Virus record (IMG/VR): IMGVR_UViG_2667527976_000002
Source: a virus
Taxonomy: Duplodnaviria; Heunggongvirae; Uroviricota; Caudoviricetes
DNA length: 31,378 nt
Reading direction: 5' to 3' (one strand)
Shown here: positions 1-31,378 of the stretch, one piece after another
How the letters are laid out: every line of letters starts with the position of its first letter
Numbering within the stretch: the first letter of the stretch is position 1
Program-made: the position numbers and the translations under genes
The notes under the pieces: generated by a model
The model's database searches: none
The model's input: the letters and a program-made list of their open reading frames with translations, nothing else
Told to the model about the DNA's origin: nothing

Positions 1-160
1 TTTTTGATGATCGCGTCACCAAACTCGCTGAACATTTCAGCAGTTTAGCGCCTTCCATCAGACGTTCGAAGTCATAGGTTACAGTCTTGGCGTTGATCGC
101 GCCTTCCATACCTTTAACAATCAGGTCTGCGGCTTCAGTCCAGCCCATATGGCGCAGCAG
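1..160 (-). pseudogene. icd: Orphan 3' fragment of the isocitrate dehydrogenase gene (last ~53 codons); prophage attachment-site remnant
   Basis: Reverse-complement translation reads [44 protein letters not shown]..., matching the Icd C-terminal region. Similarity stops abruptly near 158 where AT-rich DNA begins, and no icd body follows. An apparent 2-nt insertion near 26-27 breaks the frame before the expected EFGDAII end (judged against my recollection of E. coli Icd). Confidence 0.6.
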
Positions 161-640
161 TATATAAAAACATTAAGTTTAAGTCATTGATATTTAATAA
201 TAAAAATTATTTTATTGTTTTTTTATTAGCCAAAATCAACTTTATTCAACCATTTGATTTCATTGACGTTCGTTTTTATTTTGGGGAAAGGTTTTATCTA
301 CCATTTATATCAAAATTACAAGTCTACATTTTATTAACATCTCAATACATGTGAGGCCTTGCAGACCTTTGCGAGAGCTTATGTGTCTCAGTTTTGTCCC
401 ACCTTTTATTACGACTTGCATAGCCAATGAAGATAAATGTAGTTAATGCCTGTTATGAGCGAGGAGTGGACGTAAAAGAATTTTTAAAAATTTAAGGCTT
501 ACTAAGGTAACAAGTATCAGAGAATCTCATGAACCTATTGCTGCGTCCTAGCAGAACGAAATTTCTCTCTACTTAATACTAAAATTGTTTTATATTTTTC
601 GTAGTCTTTTGTCACTAAGTTTGTTCGTACTTGATATAAT
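161..640. other. AT-rich non-coding region next to the att junction (possible attP arm remnant)
   Basis: No ORF of 60 aa or more on either strand; strongly AT-rich with A/T runs, adjacent to the end of icd homology. Assignment as an integrase/IHF-binding arm is inference only. Confidence 0.3.
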
Positions 641-642
641 TT

Positions 643-972
643 TTAAAAATGGCTTTCGAAATCTCGTTCGAATGTAGTAGGACTTACAACCAAATCATGT
701 ACAGCGTCAACTAAATGCTGTGCTAATGAATATTTGAATTGGAGTGACTGCAAGTTTTCTTTATTGATTAATTTATATTTATCAGGGTCCACAGTATTTC
801 CTTCATTATTGAAGGGATAGATCCATTGTCCATGTGCTAGCTTGTTTCGTATTTCTATCAGGATTCGTAGCTCATTCGACAAAACATCATGTAATGCTGC
901 TCTTCGTGCGGCATGTGCTATCCCAAGAGTCCTTTCATCCAGCAGGAAACAAACTAATCCCTGTTTTGGGCC
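643..972 (-). pseudogene. Truncated Abi-like protein fragment with HEPN-type Rx4HG motif
   Basis: Open frame without an ATG runs 972 to 643 (the track ORF begins at a TTG at 880-882). Translation contains ILIEIRNKLAHGQW, which fits the Rx4-6H HEPN motif common in abortive-infection proteins. The frame is closed by a stop at 973-975 immediately next to the sit promoter, so the N-terminal part is missing. Confidence 0.35.
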
Positions 973-980
973 TCAAAGAT

Positions 981-999
981 GTTAATGATAATCATTTTC
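981..999 (+). promoter_or_regulatory. Fur box upstream of sitA
   Basis: gttaatgataatcattttc matches the 19-bp Fur consensus GATAATGATAATCATTATC at 17 of 19 positions, about 80-95 nt upstream of the sitA start. Confidence 0.6.
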
Positions 1000-1021
1000 A
1001 TTCTGTATAGGTTATGCTATA

Positions 1022-1043
1022 AAACATAGCCGTTGCTATGTTT
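1022..1043 (+). promoter_or_regulatory. MntR operator upstream of sitA
   Basis: Perfect inverted repeat aaacatagc-cgtt-gctatgttt, the same palindrome type as the MntR site of mntH (AAACATAGC...GCTATGTTT), about 33 nt upstream of the sitA ATG. Confidence 0.6.
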
Positions 1044-1075
1044 GTTCTAATTTTGCTCACTATAGGTACTAAATT

Positions 1076-1990
1076 ATGCGCTCAATAAAAAAAGTAACCA
1101 TGCTCTTGGGGGGCCTCGCACTCACCTGCTCGATCGCATTTCAGGCAAGTGCAACTGAAAAATTCAAGGTCATTACAACATTTACCATCATCGCAGATAT
1201 GGCCAAAAACGTGGCTGGAGATGCTGCAGAAGTCTCATCCATAACCAAGCCCGGTGCAGAAATTCATGAGTATCAGCCTACCCCTGGCGATATTAAACGT
1301 GCGCAGGGGGCACAACTGATTCTCGCCAATGGTATGAATCTGGAATTGTGGTTCCAACGCTTTTACCAGCATCTTAATGGGGTTCCAGAAGTAATTGTCT
1401 CTTCGGGTGTGACGCCAGTAGGGATCACTGAAGGCCCCTATGAGGGCAAACCTAACCCCCATGCCTGGATGTCGCCAGATAATGCTCTGATTTACGTCGA
1501 TAATATTCGTGATGCGTTGATAAAATACGATCCGGCAAATGCACAAACCTACCAACGTAATGCCGATACTTATAAAGCCAAGATTACCCAAACCCTTGCC
1601 CCCCTGCGTAAGCAGATTGCTGAACTCCCTGAGAATCAGCGATGGATGGTCACCAGTGAAGGGGCTTTTTCTTATCTCGCACGCGATTTGGGGCTAAAAG
1701 AGCTTTATCTGTGGCCGATTAATGCCGATCAACAAGGCACGCCGCAGCAGGTACGTAAGGTTGTTGATATGGTGAAGAAAAATCATATCCCGGCAGTCTT
1801 TAGCGAGAGTACGATTTCCGATAAACCAGCGCGTCAGGTTGCGCGTGAAACCGGCGCGCACTACGGCGGTGTACTCTATGTCGATTCCCTGAGCACAGAA
1901 AACGGCCCGGTACCTACGTATATCGACCTTCTGAAGGTTACTACCAGTACGCTGGTACAGGGAATTAAAGCCGGGAAAAGGGAGAAATAA
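1076..1990 (+). CDS. sitA: Periplasmic Mn/Fe-binding protein of ABC transporter (cluster A-I / TroA-like), SitA
   Basis: 304-aa ORF with signal peptide ([26 protein letters not shown]); ATG start at 1076; stop overlaps the sitB start. Confidence 0.9.
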
Positions 1991-2817
1991 TGATGCAATC
2001 TGCGGGCATTGTCGTTAATGATGTTACTGTCACCTGGCGTAACGGGCACACAGCACTGCGCGATGCATCCTTCACAGTACCAAGTGGATCTATTGCCGCT
2101 CTGGTTGGGGTAAACGGTTCCGGAAAATCGACGTTGTTTAAAGCGATTATGGGATTTGTGCGTCTGACCAGCGGAAAGATATCTGTTCTGGGTATTCCCA
2201 CGCGACAGGCGCTACAGAAAAACCTGGTTGCCTACGTCCCTCAGTCAGAAGAGGTTGACTGGTCATTTCCTGTACTAGTGGAAGATGTGGTGATGATGGG
2301 CCGCTATGGGCACATGGGTATGTTGCGTATAGCCAAAAAGAGGGATCGTCAGATTGTCACCGATGCGCTGGAACGTGTCGATATGGTGGATTTTCGCCAT
2401 CGACAAATCGGCGAGCTTTCCGGTGGACAAAAGAAACGCGTCTTTCTGGCGAGAGCGATTGCACAGCAGGGTGATGTGATCCTGCTGGATGAACCTTTTA
2501 CCGGCGTTGATGTGAAAACCGAAGCGAAAATCATCAGCCTGTTGAGGGAGTTACGCGCGGAAGGCAAGACGATGCTTGTCTCAACGCACAATCTCGGCTC
2601 AGTCACGACATTTTGCGATTATACGGTCATGGTCAAAGGCACCGTCCTGGCAAGCGGGCCGACAGACACCACTTTTACAGCCGAGAACCTGGAGCTGGCT
2701 TTTAGCGGCGTACTGCGCCATGTCACACTTAACGGCTCGGAAGAAAGCATTATTACTGACGATGAACACCCTTTTGTGGCACATCGACCGTCAGCGGTGC
2801 AGGGGGAAGCAAGATGA
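1990..2817 (+). CDS. sitB: ABC transporter ATP-binding protein SitB
   Basis: 275 aa; Walker [13 protein letters not shown] signature LSGGQKKR, Walker B ILLDEP; start overlaps sitA stop (translational coupling). Confidence 0.9.
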
Positions 2818-3671
2818 ACGTGCTACTGGAACCCTTCAGCTATGAATATATGCTCAATGCGATGTGGGTCTCGGCGATGGTCGGCGGTCTCTGCGCTTTC
2901 CTGTCATGCTATCTGATGCTAAAAGGCTGGTCGCTGATTGGCGATGCGCTGTCGCACTCTATTGTCCCAGGTGTTGCGGGGGCATATATGCTGGGGCTTC
3001 CGTTTTCTCTGGGAGCCTTCTTTTCCGGCGGACTGGCAGCGGGCAGCATGCTGTTTCTTAACCAACGCACTCGCTTAAAAGAAGATGCCATCATCGGCCT
3101 GATCTTCTCCTCCTTTTTTGGCCTGGGGCTGTTTATGGTGTCATTGAACCCGACATCCGTGAACATTCAGACCATCGTCCTGGGCAATATTCTGGCAATC
3201 GATCCGGCGGATATCCTGCAACTCACTATCATTGGCATTCTCTCGATCATCGTGCTTTTTTTCAAATGGAAAGATCTTATGGTGACCTTTTTCGACGAGA
3301 ATCACGCTCGTGCTATTGGATTGCATCCGGGCAGATTAAAAATCCTCTTCTTCACCCTGCTGTCGGTTTCGACCGTTGCGGCGCTGCAAACGGTTGGTGC
3401 CTTTCTGGTGATCTGTCTGGTGGTGACTCCCGGTGCAACAGCATGGTTGTTAACCGATCGTTTTCCCCGCCTGCTCATAATTGCTGTAACTATTGGCAGT
3501 GTAACCAGTTTCCTCGGCGCGTGGGTCAGTTACTTTCTGGACGGCGCGACAGGTGGAATCATCGTGGTGGCGCAGACACTGCTGTTTCTTTTAGCATTTG
3601 TATTTGCGCCCACCCATGGGCTTTTGGCAAATCGTCGGCGTGCGCATAAAGCGCTGGAGGATCGCTCATGA
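2814..3671 (+). CDS. sitC: ABC transporter permease SitC
   Basis: 285-aa polytopic hydrophobic protein; start overlaps sitB stop by 4 nt. Confidence 0.9.
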
Positions 3672-4525
3672 TGGCATTATTACTGGAGCCACTGCAGTTC
3701 ACCTTTATGAGTCACGCACTGCTGATTTCACTGGTAGTTTCCATACCCTGTGCGCTGCTGTCGGTCTTTCTGGTCCTGAAAGGTTGGGCACTGATGGGTG
3801 ACGCGATGAGTCATGCGGTTTTTCCTGGCATCGTGCTTGCCTGGATTCTGGGGTTACCTCTGGCTACAGGGGCATTCGTCGCCGGAGTATTCTGCGCGGT
3901 GGCGACGGGATACCTGAAAGACAACAGCCGAATCAAGCAAGATACAGTGATGGGGATTGTTTTTTCTGGCATGTTTGCCGCAGGTCTGATCTTGTATATT
4001 GCAGTCAAACCAGACGTACATCTTGACCATATTCTTTTCGGCGACATGCTCGGGGTAACCATCGGCGATATAATCCAGACGGTGATTATTGCCGGGCTGG
4101 TTACACTTGTTATTAGCGTAAAATGGCGGGATTTTTTGCTGTTCAGCTTTGATTATCAACAGGCGCAGGTAAGCGGTTTGCATACGAGATGTCTGCATTA
4201 TGGGCTGCTGTGCATGGTCTCTCTGACCATTGTGGCGACGCTGAAAGCGGTAGGTATCATTCTCTCCATTTCTCTGCTCATTGCGCCTGGCGCCATTGCG
4301 GTACTCCTGACACAACGCTTTCATATTGCGCTCCTACTGGCGATTGGCATATCGGTAATAGTGTCAATGACTGGTGTCTGGTTGTCCTTTTTTATCGACA
4401 GTGCACCAGCTCCGACGATTGTCGTCTTATTCGCGGTTGTGTTCATCATGACGTTCACCGTTACCAGCATCAACGCACGCACAAAGGGAAACACCCATAC
4501 ACAGGATTTGTCATCACCCAATTAG
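3668..4525 (+). CDS. sitD: ABC transporter permease SitD
   Basis: 285-aa hydrophobic paralogue of SitC; ATGATG start overlaps sitC stop. Confidence 0.9.
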   Translation: MMALLLEPLQFTFMSHALLISLVVSIPCALLSVFLVLKGWALMGDAMSHAVFPGIVLAWILGLPLATGAFVAGVFCAVATGYLKDNSRIKQDTVMGIVFSGMFAAGLILYIAVKPDVHLDHILFGDMLGVTIGDIIQTVIIAGLVTLVISVKWRDFLLFSFDYQQAQVSGLHTRCLHYGLLCMVSLTIVATLKAVGIILSISLLIAPGAIAVLLTQRFHIALLLAIGISVIVSMTGVWLSFFIDSAPAPTIVVLFAVVFIMTFTVTSINARTKGNTHTQDLSSPN

Positions 4526-6262: not shown

Positions 6263-6544
6263 TCACATCCAGCCACGAAGTTGATGCTCAACAGCAACCA
6301 CGTATTCATCGAATAATGACGATATTTGCGAATCATTAATGATGCGCACGTTTACAAAATATCCGTCTTCCTTAACACATACCGGTTCGCCATCTTCAGT
6401 CAGTTCTCCGGTTTCTTTGTACACGTTACCTATCACGTCGATAAGAATATCATCCTGCATCGACTCGTCATCATAATAGCCAATACTCTCCATAAAGGCC
6501 GAAAAGTCGGCCCTGTCTTCAAATTTGAGTGTTAAATCTTTCAT
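6263..6544 (-). CDS. Hypothetical small acidic protein (93 aa) encoded between the two fibre genes
   Basis: ATG at 6542-6544 overlaps the stf stop (TAATG); its stop lies 10 nt before the next gene; Asp/Glu-rich. Function not recognised. Confidence 0.55.
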   Translation of the reverse strand: MKDLTLKFEDRADFSAFMESIGYYDDESMQDDILIDVIGNVYKETGELTEDGEPVCVKEDGYFVNVRIINDSQISSLFDEYVVAVEHQLRGWM

Positions 6545-8943
6545 TAGATTGACTCCCCCATTTGTGCCTCAGTTAATTCTTTATGCCAAATGCGTAAATT
6601 TTTCACATGACCGAACAGGTGTCTGTTGCCACTGGATGATTGTCCACCGATATTAATATTACCGGCAGTATAACGTTGCAATGTATGCAGAGACGGGGAG
6701 CTGCCACCTAAAATTCCATCAACAACAACCTGCAACTGTTTATCTTCTGTAAACTTAAAGCCAGTAACAAATTTCCTTTTCTCTCTATTCCCATATGCTT
6801 TATATTCTGTTTTTGTTCCTTTGCCATTGGTGATAATTAGCCTTTTACCACGAGTGGTAAAACCAAAATACATATAACTTTCATCAGAAACTTCAGTCGT
6901 CGCCCCTGTAATTGAGATATTAAGCAAACGCGCAGAGCCTTCTAAATTAGGCATTTCAGAATCCCAATTAACATTAACTTCCATGAGAACACTAACTGGT
7001 GGAGTTGCCCAATTGAAAGGTATAGGTATGATTACCTGGTCACTTGCTCTCGTGGCACCGACCTCTGTTGTGATGATAAAAGATGACGCGTTTAGTCCCT
7101 TTTCGAATTGAGGGGTTGTTAACATTAATTTATCGCCAGACTTGATTGATCGTTGATGTGCTCCAAACTCAAAACGCCCATACATATTTTTTGCTTCTGG
7201 TGATTTGTAGGTAAACTCAACACGAATCCATCCATTAGACTCTCTGAATATGTTATAAGTTGCCGCCTCACCTCCAGAATAACTCAACATATCGCCAGTC
7301 TCGCAATCAATATATGCGCCAGCGGTCAGTGTGTTACTTGAGCCATCGTCGTTAACATATGATATTCTTGGACGCAACGTGATAATACCATCCCCACTTA
7401 CTTTTTTAACTCTGCAGGATAAAGTAACTGATTCATTTGCCGAAACTGAAATAACCCTGGTATATCCAGTAGAAATTAATGTCGCCCTTTCAGTTGTGGA
7501 TGTTTCTTTAACGCCAAACAAACCATAACTGAAACCATACTCATCAACTCCCGTGGTAATAGTTAAGTTAGCAGTGTCATAGTTCCACGATACTGGTGTA
7601 TTCGTATAAGAAAAAGTATTCGTTCTCTGACCTTCAATGAGCAGACCATCTTTTTCAAAACGTGGTTCATTTATCGCTGATTCAGCAAAACACCCAGACT
7701 TATCTATATACGTTGCAGTTGACGCCCTGGTAAATGAAACAACCTTTTCAGACGGCAATGCAATAACATCGTCACCAACTGTGATGCTCTTATATCCAGG
7801 AGCAAACCCGGTAATCATATCCAGTGAATCGTTAAACGGTATCCACACCTCAGGTAACGGCTGTAAGACATATTTATACGGCTCCGCAGCCTGGCTTGCG
7901 TACTCTCTGGCTGCATCTTCGCTTGCTTTAGCTGCCGTCTGGCTTGCTGCCGATGCTTTCGCTGAGTTCGCAGCCGCTGTTTCGCTCGCCTTTGCGTTGG
8001 TTTCACTGGTTTTTGCTGCTTTTTGACTGTTAGCTGATGCAGTGGCAGAAGCAGCCGCCGCACTTGCAGAACCAGCTGCAGCACTCTCGCTTTCAGCTGC
8101 TGCAGCCTGACTACTTTTCGCCGCAGTTTCACTGGCTTTGGCATTCGTTTCGCTGGTCTTCGCTGCTGTCTGGCTGGACTTTGCGTTAGTTTCACTCGTC
8201 TTCGCAGCTTTCTGGCTGTTAGCCGCAGCAGTTGCTGATCCGGCTGCTGAAGTCGCAGAACCGGCCGCCGCACTCTCGCTTTCAGCTGCTGCATCCTGAC
8301 TGCTTTTCGCCGCAGTTTCACTGGCTTTGGCATTCGTTTCGCTGGTTTTCGCTGCCGTCTGGCTGGACTTCGCGTTGGTTTCGCTCGTCTTTGCGGCTGT
8401 CTCACTGTTTTTCGCGTTGGTTTCTGATTTTTTGGCTGCAGTCGCGGAGTTTGCCGATGCAGTCTGTGAGGCCGCTGCCGCCTGTGCGCTGTTAGCTGCG
8501 TTCGTTTCTGAGGTTTTCGCCGCGTTCTTCGATGATGCCGCTGCTGTTTCGGATTTCTTTGCCGCCGCTGCGCTCTGAGAGGCGGCTTCAGCGTTGCGTG
8601 CCGCTTCTTCCACCATTTCCTCAAAACGACGCAATGCCTCCGGCATGACATCATCTTCCGTCATGGCACCGAGAAAATCATTCAGCGTCCCCGGCTTAGA
8701 ATCTTCATACACGGTGATGGTCCCGGCATGTGAAGGCGGAAAACCTTCAACCAGCAGGATAACGCTGTACTGGCCATACTCAACATCCATGCTGTAACGC
8801 CCGGCTTCATCCGGATTTTCAGAGGCCACCGTGTTCACCAGTACCGTGGTGCTGTTACGCTTTGCCTTCAGTTGAATAGTGCAGTTCTGTATTGGTTTTC
8901 CCGCACCATCTTTCAGCACACCTGAGATTTTTACTGCTGCCAT
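6544..8943 (-). CDS. stf: Side tail fibre protein Stf: lambda-like N-terminus, Ala/Ser/Thr-rich repeat shaft, non-lambda C-terminal domain (LamG-like tip)
   Basis: N-terminus MAAVKISGVLKDGAGKPIQNCTIQLKAKRNSTTV... matches recalled lambda Stf. The track ORF starts at a GTG at 8947-8949; the ATG at 8941-8943 gives the lambda-like start. The C-terminus ...NINIGGQSSSGNRHLFGHVKNLRIWHKELTEAQMGESI resembles laminin-G/concanavalin-type lectin folds. Confidence 0.85.
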   Translation of the reverse strand: MAAVKISGVLKDGAGKPIQNCTIQLKAKRNSTTVLVNTVASENPDEAGRYSMDVEYGQYSVILLVEGFPPSHAGTITVYEDSKPGTLNDFLGAMTEDDVMPEALRRFEEMVEEAARNAEAASQSAAAAKKSETAAASSKNAAKTSETNAANSAQAAAASQTASANSATAAKKSETNAKNSETAAKTSETNAKSSQTAAKTSETNAKASETAAKSSQDAAAESESAAAGSATSAAGSATAAANSQKAAKTSETNAKSSQTAAKTSETNAKASETAAKSSQAAAAESESAAAGSASAAAASATASANSQKAAKTSETNAKASETAAANSAKASAASQTAAKASEDAAREYASQAAEPYKYVLQPLPEVWIPFNDSLDMITGFAPGYKSITVGDDVIALPSEKVVSFTRASTATYIDKSGCFAESAINEPRFEKDGLLIEGQRTNTFSYTNTPVSWNYDTANLTITTGVDEYGFSYGLFGVKETSTTERATLISTGYTRVISVSANESVTLSCRVKKVSGDGIITLRPRISYVNDDGSSNTLTAGAYIDCETGDMLSYSGGEAATYNIFRESNGWIRVEFTYKSPEAKNMYGRFEFGAHQRSIKSGDKLMLTTPQFEKGLNASSFIITTEVGATRASDQVIIPIPFNWATPPVSVLMEVNVNWDSEMPNLEGSARLLNISITGATTEVSDESYMYFGFTTRGKRLIITNGKGTKTEYKAYGNREKRKFVTGFKFTEDKQLQVVVDGILGGSSPSLHTLQRYTAGNINIGGQSSSGNRHLFGHVKNLRIWHKELTEAQMGESI
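8020..8397. repeat. Tandem direct repeat (2 copies of ~189 bp plus a partial third) inside stf
   Basis: Near-identical DNA blocks (for example 8088-8215 versus 8268-8395) encode the 63-aa unit AAKTSETNAKSSQTAAKTSETNAKASETAAKSSQ(D/A)AAAESESAAAGSA...ANSQK twice, with nested ~14-aa sub-repeats. Confidence 0.7.
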
Positions 8944-9007: not shown

Positions 9008-9607
9008 TCAGAACTTATAACCGACACCCACGATGAAACCGTCAGTGCGCCAGTCACCACTGCCGGAGCCTTCATAAGCAATATCAATGGCCACGGATTC
9101 GGTCGGGTTAAACTGCACGCCAGCTCCCCACGCCAGAGACGTGTTGCTGTGGCGACCGTCATCACTTCCGGTCAGCACATCGTGCGTTTTCCCCTTGTTG
9201 TCAGTTACGCGGAGGTAATCCCCGGAAAAAGTCGAAACACGGCTGTAAGCCATACCCGCCATCGCATACGCGCTGAACCATTCATTCACGCGCACAGACG
9301 GCCCCGCCATCACGCTGAACCAGCGGTTACGCACGGAATCTTTATGCCAGCGGGTATCGCTGTAACGGGTCAGCTGACGATTCTTGTATCCTGCATAACT
9401 GAATGACGTCACCAGCCCCAGCGTGTCCGTAAATTCATAACGGTATTTCACGTTAATGCCCTTCAGGTCATCACTGCCTGGCATATCAGTATGGGTCTGA
9501 AGATACCCGGCGCTTAGTGTGGACTGATGCTCTGCTGCGCTCGCTGGCGTACCAGCGGCAACCAGCCAGACTACTGCGGACAGAATAACAGCACATAATT
9601 TACGCAT
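9008..9607 (-). CDS. lom: Outer-membrane protein Lom (Ail/Lom family beta-barrel)
   Basis: 199 aa with signal peptide MRKLCAVILSAVVWLVAAGTPASA; body closely matches recalled lambda Lom; ATG at 9605-9607. Confidence 0.9.
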   Translation of the reverse strand: MRKLCAVILSAVVWLVAAGTPASAAEHQSTLSAGYLQTHTDMPGSDDLKGINVKYRYEFTDTLGLVTSFSYAGYKNRQLTRYSDTRWHKDSVRNRWFSVMAGPSVRVNEWFSAYAMAGMAYSRVSTFSGDYLRVTDNKGKTHDVLTGSDDGRHSNTSLAWGAGVQFNPTESVAIDIAYEGSGSGDWRTDGFIVGVGYKF

Positions 9608-9674: not shown

Positions 9675-12600
9675 TCAGCTGATACTGATGCCTGCAGTGG
9701 CTTTCTTCATCACAACAACCAGCAAATCGCTGATACTTGCTGTGGGATACCAACCATTTACCCACCATGCTGATACAGAAAACTCCAGTGTCATTACACC
9801 ACTGCCTGCAGGCATATCAATAACACCCGTGTAAATCAGAGTATTATCCAGAGCCGTTCGGTTATAAATTTCAGCCCCGTTTTTCTTCACTATCAGGCGG
9901 CATGACGAATAAGTATCGCTATTCTCCCGCTCATGTCTGGCACCGCAGAAAGCCACCGCTGGAATAACAATTTGCCGGTCAAACGACTGATCGTCATAAA
10001 CCCTGACGGTAATAGTCCCTGATGGCCACCGCTCCGGTGCACGGGAGTCCCGGGGGAAAGCTTTGCCCACTGTTTTAACGAGATCGCCTTCAATCTGGTT
10101 CGCGGACAGTTTTCCCAGAACCCGACAGTTCTCGTTAATCGTGACATTATTGAGCGTCCCGGAGTTCGCATTCACGTTACCGCTGATATCGGCATTTTTC
10201 GCCGTCAGCCGCCCGTCCGGTGTCAGGGAAAATACCGGAGGATTGCCGCCACTGGTAATGGTGGGAGCCGTCAGATACTTCAGGAACACTTCGTTCATGA
10301 ATATCTGGTTGCCCTGCGCCACAAACATCGGCGTTTCATTCCCGTTTGCCGGGTCAATAAACGCGATACGGTTAGCGGCAACCAGGAACTGGCTCAGTTT
10401 GCCTTCCTCCGTATCCTCCATACTAAGGCCAAGCCCCGCGACATAATGCCTGCCGTCTTCGGTCTGCTCAATTTTGACGCCCCACATGGCATTCCATTTA
10501 TCGTTGGCGTCCTTCCACTCTTTCGAAAACTCCTCCAGTTTGCTGGCGTTATCCTCCGTCAGCTCGACTTTTTCCAGCAGCTCCTTGCCGAGATGGGATT
10601 CGGTTATCTGGCCTTTGAAAAAATCCAGGTAACCTTCCGCATCATCGCTCGGCTGACCAACAGCCTCCACGAATGCCGATTTGCCAACGGTGTTCACACT
10701 GCGGATATAAAAGTAATAATCATGGCCCGGTTTGATATTGATACTGGCAGCTATCCAGTACAGCGCCGTACCAAGATAGCGGGCTGTGGTCTCAACCTGC
10801 CTGATATCGGTAATCCGCTTTTCCGAGAACCAGAACTCAAACTGTACCGTCGGATCATAAACCGCAAGATGCGGCGTGGCAGTTATCTGAAAATAGCCCG
10901 GCGTCAGCTCAATCCGCGACGGCGCTGCCGGTGCGGCAATCCGGAACGATACCGATGCCGGATCGCCCTGCTGTCCCCACGCATTTACCGCCCGGACCGT
11001 CAGCGTGTAACGCCCCAGCGCCAGTTGCCTGAAGCGGTATGTGGTTTCCGTCGTCCTGGCCGTGCTGACCAGCCGCTCACTGCCGTCATCCGCTGCCACG
11101 GTCAGGCGAAGCATAAAGCTCACCCCCTTCACCACCTTCGGCGTATCCCAGCGCGCCAGCACCTGATACTCCCCGCTGTCTGAGGTGACTTCGGCAGTCA
11201 GGTGCTGCACCGCAGGCGGCGTGACACCATTCACCGTGCCGCTCTGGTCGCCGTCAAAGTGCGCCCCGTTATCCACGATGGCCTCTTTTTCCGGCACATG
11301 CTGCACGGCGGTGATGGCATACGTGCCGTCGTCGTTCTCACGGATACTCACGCAGCGGAACAGGCGCTGGCGCAGCGTCGGCAGCTTCAGCCCCCACACG
11401 CTGTATTCAGCAACACCGTCAGGAACACGGCTCACTTTTACCTTCACGCCGTCGGTGACGGACTGAACCTCCACGCTGACCGGATTGCCACTTCCGTCAA
11501 CCAGACTTATCAGCGTGGTACCGGAGGATGGCAGCGTGATTTCACGGTCGAGCGTCAGCGTCCGGGTCTGGCTGTTCACCGCCAGCACGCGCCCGCCGAT
11601 GCTGATACCCGCATAGTCATCATCACAGATTTCAATGACATCCCCCGGTACATGGCGAAGCCCTTCCGCACCCACGCTGAAGTCCACGGTCTGCGTTTCC
11701 AGCAGTTCCGTTTTAATCAGCCACAGCCCGGCGCGGTGCGCCTGCCCCCGGCTGGTACAGCCAAAGGCATCCATCTTCGTGACGTTACGACCGTAACGGG
11801 CAATGGCCTGCGTATCTTCAACAAGCTCTGTCGCCGTCTCCCAGCCGTTGTTCGGGTCAATCCAGTTCACCTCAACGGCATTATGGCGGTCCTTCAGGGC
11901 GCTGAAGCTGTAGCGGAACGGCGCGCCATCATCCGGCATCACCACATTACTGCGGTTATAGGTCCACACCTTATCTGATGGTCGGTCCTGCACGAACGTC
12001 AGCGTCTGCCCGTTCCATACCGGCATACAGCGCATCGCCGAGCAGAAATCACTGAGCACATCCCACGCCTTGCGCTGTGTGGTCAGCCAGGCATTACAGG
12101 TGATGCGCGGCTCCGTGCCACCAAAGCCATCCGGCACCGACTGGTCGCAATTCTGGCCGATGACATACAGCGCCCATTTGTCCACATCCGCCGCACCGAG
12201 ACGCTTCCCCATGCCGTAGCGCGGATGGGTCAGCATATCCCACAGACACCAGGCCATGTTGTTGCTGTATGCTGGCTTAAACGTTCCGTCCCAGATACCG
12301 CTGTATTGTCGCGTCTGCGGGTTATAGTTCGACGGCACCTGCAGAATGCGCCCGCGAAGATGATAATTACGACTCACCTGCTGGCTGCCGAACTGCTCCG
12401 AGTCCACCTGTACGCTGACCAGTGCCGTGTTCGGGTAGCACTGTTTCACATCGATGATTTCGGTGTATGACGACCAGAGCGTTTTGTTCTGCAGCTGGTC
12501 TGTGGTGCTGTCCGGCGTCATCCTGCGCATCCGGATATTAAACGGGCGCGGCGGCAGGTTATCCACCACCACCGAGGCCAGATACTGCGAGGTGGTTTTG

Positions 12601-24138: not shown

Positions 24139-27819
<3,681 letters not shown>

Positions 27820-29032: not shown

Positions 29033-29326
29033 ATGAAAAAAATGTTGTTTTCTGCCGCTCTGGCAATGCTTATTACAGGATGTGCTCAACAGACGTTTAC
29101 TGTTGGAAACAAACCGACAGCAGTAACACCAAAGGAAACCATCACCCATCATTTCTTCGTTTCGGGAATTGGACAGGAGAAAACTGTTGATGCAGCCAAA
29201 ATTTGTGGCGGCGCAGAAAATGTTGTTAAAACAGAAACCCAGCAAACATTCGTAAATGGATTGCTCGGTTTTATTACTTTAGGCATTTATACTCCGCTGG
29301 AAGCGCGTGTCTATTGCTCACAATAA
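29033..29326 (+). CDS. bor: Bor lipoprotein (Bor/Iss family, serum-resistance associated)
   Basis: 97 aa from the ATG at 29033, MKKMLFSAALAMLITGCAQQTFTV... with lipobox ITGC; the track ORF has a 16-codon upstream extension; opposite strand to the late genes as in lambda. Confidence 0.85.
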   Translation: MKKMLFSAALAMLITGCAQQTFTVGNKPTAVTPKETITHHFFVSGIGQEKTVDAAKICGGAENVVKTETQQTFVNGLLGFITLGIYTPLEARVYCSQ

Positions 29327-31110: not shown

Positions 31111-31306
31111 AACTAAAACTTACATCTTGAAATAATCGCATTGATTAGATGAATATTTATCGCGCAGTGACATCATTTTTTAATAATAGTTCAAAAAAAA
31201 GGGCGTACAACTAAAACTTACATCTTGAAATAATCTCATTGATTAGATGAATATTTGTAGTGCAGTGACATCATTTTTAAATAATAGTTCAAATAAAAGG
31301 GCTCAC
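31111..31306 (+). repeat. Tandem direct duplication (2 x 98 bp, ~90% identical) immediately upstream of the porin-like gene
   Basis: Unit aactaaaacttacatcttgaaataatc(g/t)cattgattagatgaatattt...cagtgacatcattttt...aatagttcaaa...aaaaggg at 31111-31208 and 31209-31306; the second copy ends 1 nt before the ATG. Confidence 0.75.
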
Positions 31307-31307
31307 G

Positions 31308-31378
31308 ATGAAAAAATTAACAGTGGCAATTTCTGCTGTAGCTGCATCAGTACTGATGGCGATGTCTGCTCAGGCAGC
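31308..31378 (+). CDS. 5' end of a secreted or outer-membrane protein gene, probably a prophage-encoded OmpC-family porin (truncated by the window edge)
   Basis: ATG at 31308 followed by MKKLTVAISAVAASVLMAMSAQA, a classical signal peptide ending AQA. Position (beyond the lysis genes, opposite strand) and N-terminus agree with my recollection of NmpC/Lc-type phage porins. Only 23 codons are visible. Confidence 0.5.
   Translation, partial: MKKLTVAISAVAASVLMAMSAQA

Follow-up and report, generated by a model that had tools for sequence, protein, structure and literature searches.

The icd fragment and its surroundings

The stretch of DNA analysed here (the window; 31,378 nucleotides, IMG/VR record IMGVR_UViG_2667527976_000002) opens with the 3' end of icd, the gene for isocitrate dehydrogenase, read on the minus strand from 159 to 1 as TGCTGCGCCATATGGGCTGG...ATCATCAAAAA (also written TGCTGCGCCATATGGGCTGG...GGTGACGCGATCATCAAAAA). 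An icd match to this fragment is found in 5,423 of 5,426 complete E. coli genomes (E about 4e-80). The homology starts at 159, and from 160 on the window consists of AT-rich phage DNA that is unrelated to the icd body. The fragment holds codons L364 to K414 and two nucleotides of N415, that is, 51 full codons, and the last 7 nt of the gene (T, ATG, TAA), with the stop codon, lie to the left of the window edge, as judged from relatives. An earlier account of this DNA, which we call the sequence-only reading, had described about 53 icd codons without the gene body, ending at about 158 and marking a prophage–chromosome junction. Alignments with icd and the phage DNA from 160 onward confirm the orphan gene end and the junction (attR); the size given was roughly correct, the exact values being 51 codons and 159.

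That the gene body is missing is evident from the window alone, because the 5' side of the fragment faces rightward into the window, where the sequence is not icd. Positions 159 to 1 align with codons 364–415; the fragment is a partial copy of the gene's last ~165 bp, with the body missing. It is not the end of a functional gene: no body lies 5' of 159 and a +2 frameshift is present at 26–32. Both the frameshift and the non-functional nature of the fragment follow from the alignments. The same stretch in UPEC132 and GN02350 is annotated by PGAP as a pseudogene lacking its N-terminus. In all of the near-identical genomes examined, the chromosomal 3' side of the remnant carries ymgL, ycgX and bluR, the genes downstream of icd. 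The sequence-only reading had pointed to the left of the window as the place where an intact icd body might lie in frame with the fragment, which reverses the orientation; in relatives it is ymgL/ycgX/bluR that occupy this side.

The features of the window are collected in Table 1. The sitABCD genes are cargo, with the attachment arm on one side and the tail fibre genes on the other, and the sit genes of relatives have the Pfam domains ZnuA, ABC_tran and ABC-3. The prophage body that follows is on the minus strand except for iss/bor, which is on the plus strand, and the prophage runs on past the right end of the window. In relatives it encodes Bet/Exo/Gam. Three cargo loci concerned with host interaction are present, namely sitABCD, a Lom/Ail-family outer membrane protein (at about 9008–9607) and the Bor-like iss (at about 29033–29326), and these match the catalogued PAI-icd island. 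An ORF at 643–882 (minus strand, 79 aa) matches only positions 128–205 of the 246-position phrog_12663 (E 2e-42) and bears no relation to phage 21 gene 31. It looks to be what is left of a decayed phage gene, and it lies between sitA and the attachment arm. A search of window positions 1–1300 against Rfam gave no match.

Table 1 Positions of the features of the window
Feature	Position	Strand	Basis or content
Orphan icd 3' fragment (icd' remnant at attR)	1–159	−	Alignments with intact icd, K-12 icdC and the remnants of relatives
Frameshift/mosaic junction	26–32	−	CG at 26–27 and AA at 31–32, with CTG (28–30) between
Tract of functional-icd type	33–98	−	A83 and C98, together with AA at 31–32; differs from every sister remnant
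Putative integrase crossover core	149–160	−	Predicted from the 5' boundary of phage–host homology
Phage arm of attR (P arm)	161–440	−	blastn against phage 21
Candidate arm-type integrase site	279–290	−	Exact copy of the phage 21 consensus YYTTCCCCAAAA (CTTTCCCCAAAA), ~120 nt from the junction
sitABCD iron/manganese ABC transporter	1076–4525	+	ORFs; identical genes annotated in UPEC132 and GN02350
Lambdoid prophage body	4877–30620	−	Tail fibres, Lom, J, tape measure, head, portal, terminase and lysis genes

Near-identical genomes and the far junction

Among complete genomes GN02350 is the closest, with 8 SNPs and a single 2-nt indel separating it from the window over 31,210 nt. In GN02350, UPEC132 and 15 other assemblies the order is bluR, ycgX, ymgL, icd remnant, sitABCD, prophage, xis, int, intact icd, with a prophage of 49 kb. 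The far junction lies outside the window and is read here from these relatives, which differ from it at 9 events in 31 kb. The intact icd at the other prophage end, with an integrase adjacent to it, had been anticipated by the sequence-only reading and is found in all 17 near-identical genomes, on the same strand as the remnant and accompanied by an excisionase. The tyrosine integrase of these relatives is 98.7% identical to Int of phage 21 and 60% identical to IntE of e14; many viable lambdoid coliphages with an icd segment of their own likewise have integrases ~99% identical to it.

These data bear on whether the fragment could be the end of the cell's only icd, either functional or truncated by a deletion, instead of a displaced duplicate. 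The sole point in favour is that the intact copy is not within the window. The DNA from 160 onward is homologous to phage 21 and not to the icd body, the fragment is frameshifted, and an intact icd stands at the other prophage end in 17/17 near-identical genomes; we regard this explanation as extremely improbable.

Two other private features of the window were noted in these comparisons. In the tail fibre gene at 6544–8943 (minus strand), two private synonymous SNPs 36 nt apart, at 8095 and 8131, match the corresponding bases (8284 and 8320) of the adjacent 189-nt repeat unit and so form a second patch that matches a paralogue. At the right end, 31111–31302 contains a diverged tandem copy, of about 98 nt and 93.6% identity, of the region upstream of a porin, the ompC/nmpC-like porin of the prophage (ATG at 31309); relatives have one copy of this upstream region, followed directly by the ATG, and the duplication is found in no complete E. 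coli genome. Recombination with a paralogous prophage locus may account for it, or it may be an artefact of the contig end.

Empty sites and the two icd ends

An unoccupied attB reconstructed from the icd body, the remnant and ymgL is covered over at least 80% of its length in 2,898 genomes, and thus the site exists without the prophage. The closest non-lysogen, MS 16-3, matches it at 99.4% and has a single icd with ymgL directly after it. In the lysogens, the last 165 bp of the functional icd differ from the empty-site allele of MS 16-3 at at least 6 sites, in line with the earlier proposal that the 3' end at the other junction is supplied by the phage, and this end runs on into phage DNA, where three CTTCCCCAAAAC-type repeats precede int. 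The sister remnant (that of the near-identical genomes) equals the icd end of MS 16-3 except for one 4-nt block (TTCA/CAGC), and continues into the chromosome. A divergent functional end and a remnant resembling the empty site fit integration at the 5' edge of the homology, the phage supplying the working end. The duplication extends beyond the stop codon through the icd terminator, to about 225 bp in total.

Phage arm and attachment site

On its 5' side the remnant is abutted by phage DNA homologous to the attP arm of a free phage. Arm and remnant together align with positions 27053–27490 of phage 21 (OL657228) with 412/442 identities (93%, blastn), and in the free phage the DNA matching the window arm sits to the left of the icd-like segment (the ICDH-like pseudo-CDS). 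The order in free phage 21 is the 165-bp ICDH-like pseudo-CDS, the terminator, three arm sites, int and xis. This similarity and the empty attB sites in the 2,898 genomes uphold the view that the arrangement is that of icd-integrating phages such as e14 and phage 21. One exact copy of the arm-site consensus lies in the window arm (Table 1) and is conserved in phage 21. The statistics of such a match are weak, with 42% of shuffled sequences matching at up to one mismatch; its position and conservation make it a suggestive candidate.

Excision of e14 in K-12 alters icd from codon H366 onward (PMC13626634), and codon H366 corresponds to window positions 149–151. Together with the start of homology at 159, this would place the crossover within the first ~11 nt of the homology, at ~149–160 of the window. 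Phages 21 and e14 share one attB, according to the title of a 1997 paper by Wang et al. that PMC12803456 cites. A crossover at the 3' end of the homology, which would make the remnant phage-derived, was considered and rejected, since it is the functional end of the lysogens and not the remnant that differs from the empty-site allele; the change of icd from codon 366 onward upon e14 excision (PMC13626634) also counters it.

The architecture, the phage arm and the homologies are shown by the sequences themselves; the far junction and the crossover position we infer from the near-identical relatives and from e14, and integration would have run as follows. In its attP the phage carries a copy of the final 165 bp of icd together with the icd terminator, and the tyrosine integrase would recombine at the 5' edge of the homology. 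The icd body would be fused to the phage-borne end, giving a functional gene at the far junction outside the window, and the prior chromosomal end would be shifted by about 49 kb and left, with neither promoter nor start codon, between phage DNA (160 on) and the chromosome. We therefore consider it very probable that positions 1–159 are the attR junction of a phage-21-like lambdoid prophage in icd, an element of ~49 kb of the PAI-icd kind with sitABCD and iss.

Relation to phage 21, e14 and the PAI-icd islands

The attachment system of phage 21 (OL657228; prophage NC-SV of E. coli NC101; PMC12803456) has the same attB within icd and the same attP layout. The prophage of the window differs from phage 21 in its sitABCD and iss cargo and in the region beyond 440, its attL allele in relatives (G, T, TGTTCA, AAGAA) is a different one, and the window remnant is frameshifted. 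In K-12, icdC (b4519) of e14 is likewise a 165-bp displaced icd 3' end at attR, the right end of that prophage; the functional icd ends in phage-derived sequence, and excision rejoins the icd body with the remnant (PMC6379469; PMC13626634). Unlike the present element, e14 is a 15-kb defective element with icdC in frame and another arm sequence beside it. The DNA upstream of K-12 icdC is unrelated to window positions 160–185 and, as given above, the integrases are only 60% identical. From its sequence, the element is to be classed with phage 21 and not with e14.

Islands of the PAI-icd type with Sit and usually Iss occur in 536, CFT073, UTI89, RS218, IHE3034, S88, APEC O1, LF82 and others, and most of those listed for ExPEC and AIEC strains measure 46–56 kb (PMC7545054). 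The gene content of the window matches them, with no difference of substance apart from the private remnant allele.

The sister remnant of UPEC132 and GN02350 is identical to the icd-like segment of phage 21 attP, at 100% through the terminator (OL657228 27333–27550). The displaced "host" end was thus already of the phage 21 type in this lineage, and labels of host and phage ends are blurred. This identity implies, at the level of the alleles compared, an earlier exchange between phage and host at the icd end. The sequence-only reading had taken the remnant to be the original end of the gene; it is indeed the displaced end, but not simply the original one, as the window remnant is a mosaic of both copies and the sister remnant equals the phage 21 attP segment.

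Further allele combinations are present among other remnants. In IMGVR_UViG_2541047874_000003 (locus L013), at about 9200–9450, a remnant in the same phage-arm context has a 1-nt deletion (GTAAC-TATGAC), showing that frameshifted remnants also exist elsewhere. Downstream of the intact icd of Proteus hauseri (NZ_JBEEUB010000004.1), which ends in TGC AGC GAG, come a terminator and CTTCCCCAAAAC repeats resembling the arm sites of phage 21, and this layout suggests a phage-21-type prophage in icd outside Escherichia. The icd genes of a Deinococcales MAG and a Planctomycetota MAG share near the 3' end an exact 23-nt stretch, CTGAAATGCAGCGAGTTTGGTGA, with the enterobacterial/phage allele; upstream of it both are clearly divergent, and protein-level conservation, gene transfer and contamination are candidate explanations.

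The frameshift and the mosaic structure of the remnant

The window sequence at the frameshift is CTGAAATGTTCAGCGAGTTTGG. In-frame sequences carry one of two alleles here. One, TGT TCA GAG (TGTTCAGAG), is that of K-12 icd, of icdC, of the empty-site strains and of the functional end in the lysogens; the other, TGC AGC GAG (TGCAGCGAG), is that of the sister remnants, of phage 21 attP and of the intact icd of Cedecea and Proteus hauseri, and an exact 83-mer of the sister-remnant type is present in 137 genomes. Both encode Cys-Ser-Glu and they differ by a 4-nt block, TTCA against CAGC. Decay as the source of the second allele in the sister remnants was rejected, since the change is synonymous and the allele is both that of phage 21 itself and one present in intact Cedecea and Proteus icd.

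Compared with the TGTTCA-GAG alleles (K-12 icd, icdC and the functional icd of the lysogens), the window has an extra dinucleotide CG at 26–27, which is where the sequence-only reading had seen the break in frame. Compared with the remnant of the closest genomes (TG-CAGC-GAG), the extra dinucleotide is AA at 31–32, the TT of TGTTCA. Both placements describe one sequence, with the chimeric core TGTTCAGCGAG. Written with gaps the alleles are TG-TT-CAG---AG and TG----CAG-CG-AG, and the window has the TT of the one and the CG of the other; hence the +2 frameshift.

The difference extends beyond the frameshift itself. Relative to the sister remnant the window differs at 31–32 (AA), at 83 (A, not G) and at 98 (C, not T), and position 3 and 26–27 (CG) are its only differences from the functional (attL) copy in GN02350 and UPEC132. 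The five informative sites split cleanly, with 31–159 of the functional-copy type and 1–27 of the remnant type, and the switch between alleles falls within 28–30, in the shared CAG, 2 nt out of register. Of the nine differences that separate the window from GN02350 over 31,210 nt, three fall in these 159 nt (P about 1e-5).

The chimeric allele occurs in none of the 5,426 complete E. coli genomes (best match 98.3%, to an in-frame allele) and in none of 14 further assemblies reached via the J and tail-fibre proteins, and the exact chimeric 29-mer has no counterpart in the viral, genome and metagenome contig collections. Judged by these comparisons, the frameshift is private to this sequence, and it is a mosaic, not a simple insertion or random decay.

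Origin of the mosaic

A non-reciprocal transfer (gene conversion) from attL to attR is the most likely cause, with a probability that we would put at about even. A single such event, with the functional copy as donor, the remnant as recipient and a tract that stops out of register in the CAG common to both alleles, would explain all of the differences.

Ordinary pseudogene decay would have the 2-nt insertion arise as an independent spontaneous mutation. Remnants are not under selection, and the remnant with a 1-nt deletion in IMG/VR (above) is an example of such a change. Against this, two SNPs lie within 68 nt of the insertion and all three changes equal the attL copy; the clustering of a third of all the differences in the remnant is hard to obtain from scattered mutation; and there is no local repeat that would drive slippage to CG or TT. 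Independent mutation is thus very unlikely.

A technical origin has to be taken more seriously, and we give it somewhat less than an even chance. The junction would then be real and the frameshift and mosaic the product of consensus calling or polishing in which reads of the functional icd were mixed with those of the remnant, the true remnant being the in-frame sister allele. Several observations point this way. The chimeric allele was seen in none of the complete genomes, the 14 assemblies and the three contig collections, and at each of the three variant sites the window agrees with the paralogous copy. The left end of the window is 26 nt from the junction, inside the 225-bp duplication, and both window ends lie in repeated DNA, as is the case for whole draft contigs; many assemblies do carry this prophage segment on contigs of 20–50 kb. 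The unique diverged 98-nt tandem copy at the right end and the second paralogue-matching pair of SNPs in the tail fibre repeats also favour an artefact.

Other points tell against it. A de Bruijn assembler produces the chimeric core only if it is present in the reads, and the k-mer spanning TTCAGCG is, as inferred from the sequences, in neither allele; a de Bruijn mis-join was therefore rejected as the source of the chimera, leaving alignment-based polishing as the possible technical route. Both indels would be backed by the same reads, and taking up one of them alone requires a specific behaviour of the caller. The proposal that all private SNPs derive from paralogues fails at 11397 and 13475, ordinary private SNPs with no paralogue in relatives, from which it follows that the window represents a genuinely distinct lineage. 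Causes other than gene conversion or an artefact are together unlikely.

Consequences of the frameshift and significance

In the lysogen the frameshift is without effect, because the remnant has neither promoter nor start codon. After precise excision, icd is computed to encode a protein of 422 aa in which the last 10 residues are replaced by 16 others.

Both feature and mechanism are already known, from the e14/phage 21 mode of integration and from the Sit/Iss "PAI-icd" island of ExPEC; e14 provides the 3' codons of icd and leaves a pseudo-icd' behind (PMC6379469). The fragment is a textbook case of a phage that integrates inside a gene of an essential pathway and carries a spare end for that gene, and there is little new biology in it; it does give the exact right boundary of the prophage. 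The only element that is not routine is the private mosaic frameshift, which is possibly artefactual. If it is an artefact, it shows that consensus calls within short duplications at the ends of prophages need to be treated with care.

If the frameshift is real, curing of the prophage would alter Icd, which is relevant to the construction of prophage-free derivatives, and if the altered end harms the enzyme, loss of the prophage would be penalised. It is conceivable, and to our minds rather doubtful, that a real frameshift produced by out-of-register gene conversion makes the remnant a trap and that the virulence-associated prophage is in this way genetically locked in without a toxin–antitoxin system; were this so, cells losing the sitABCD/iss prophage would pay a metabolic cost via the broken icd end. 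More generally, the 3' end of icd is a small recombination hot-spot at which phage and host alleles are repeatedly shuffled, and the mosaic of the window is one more instance of it.
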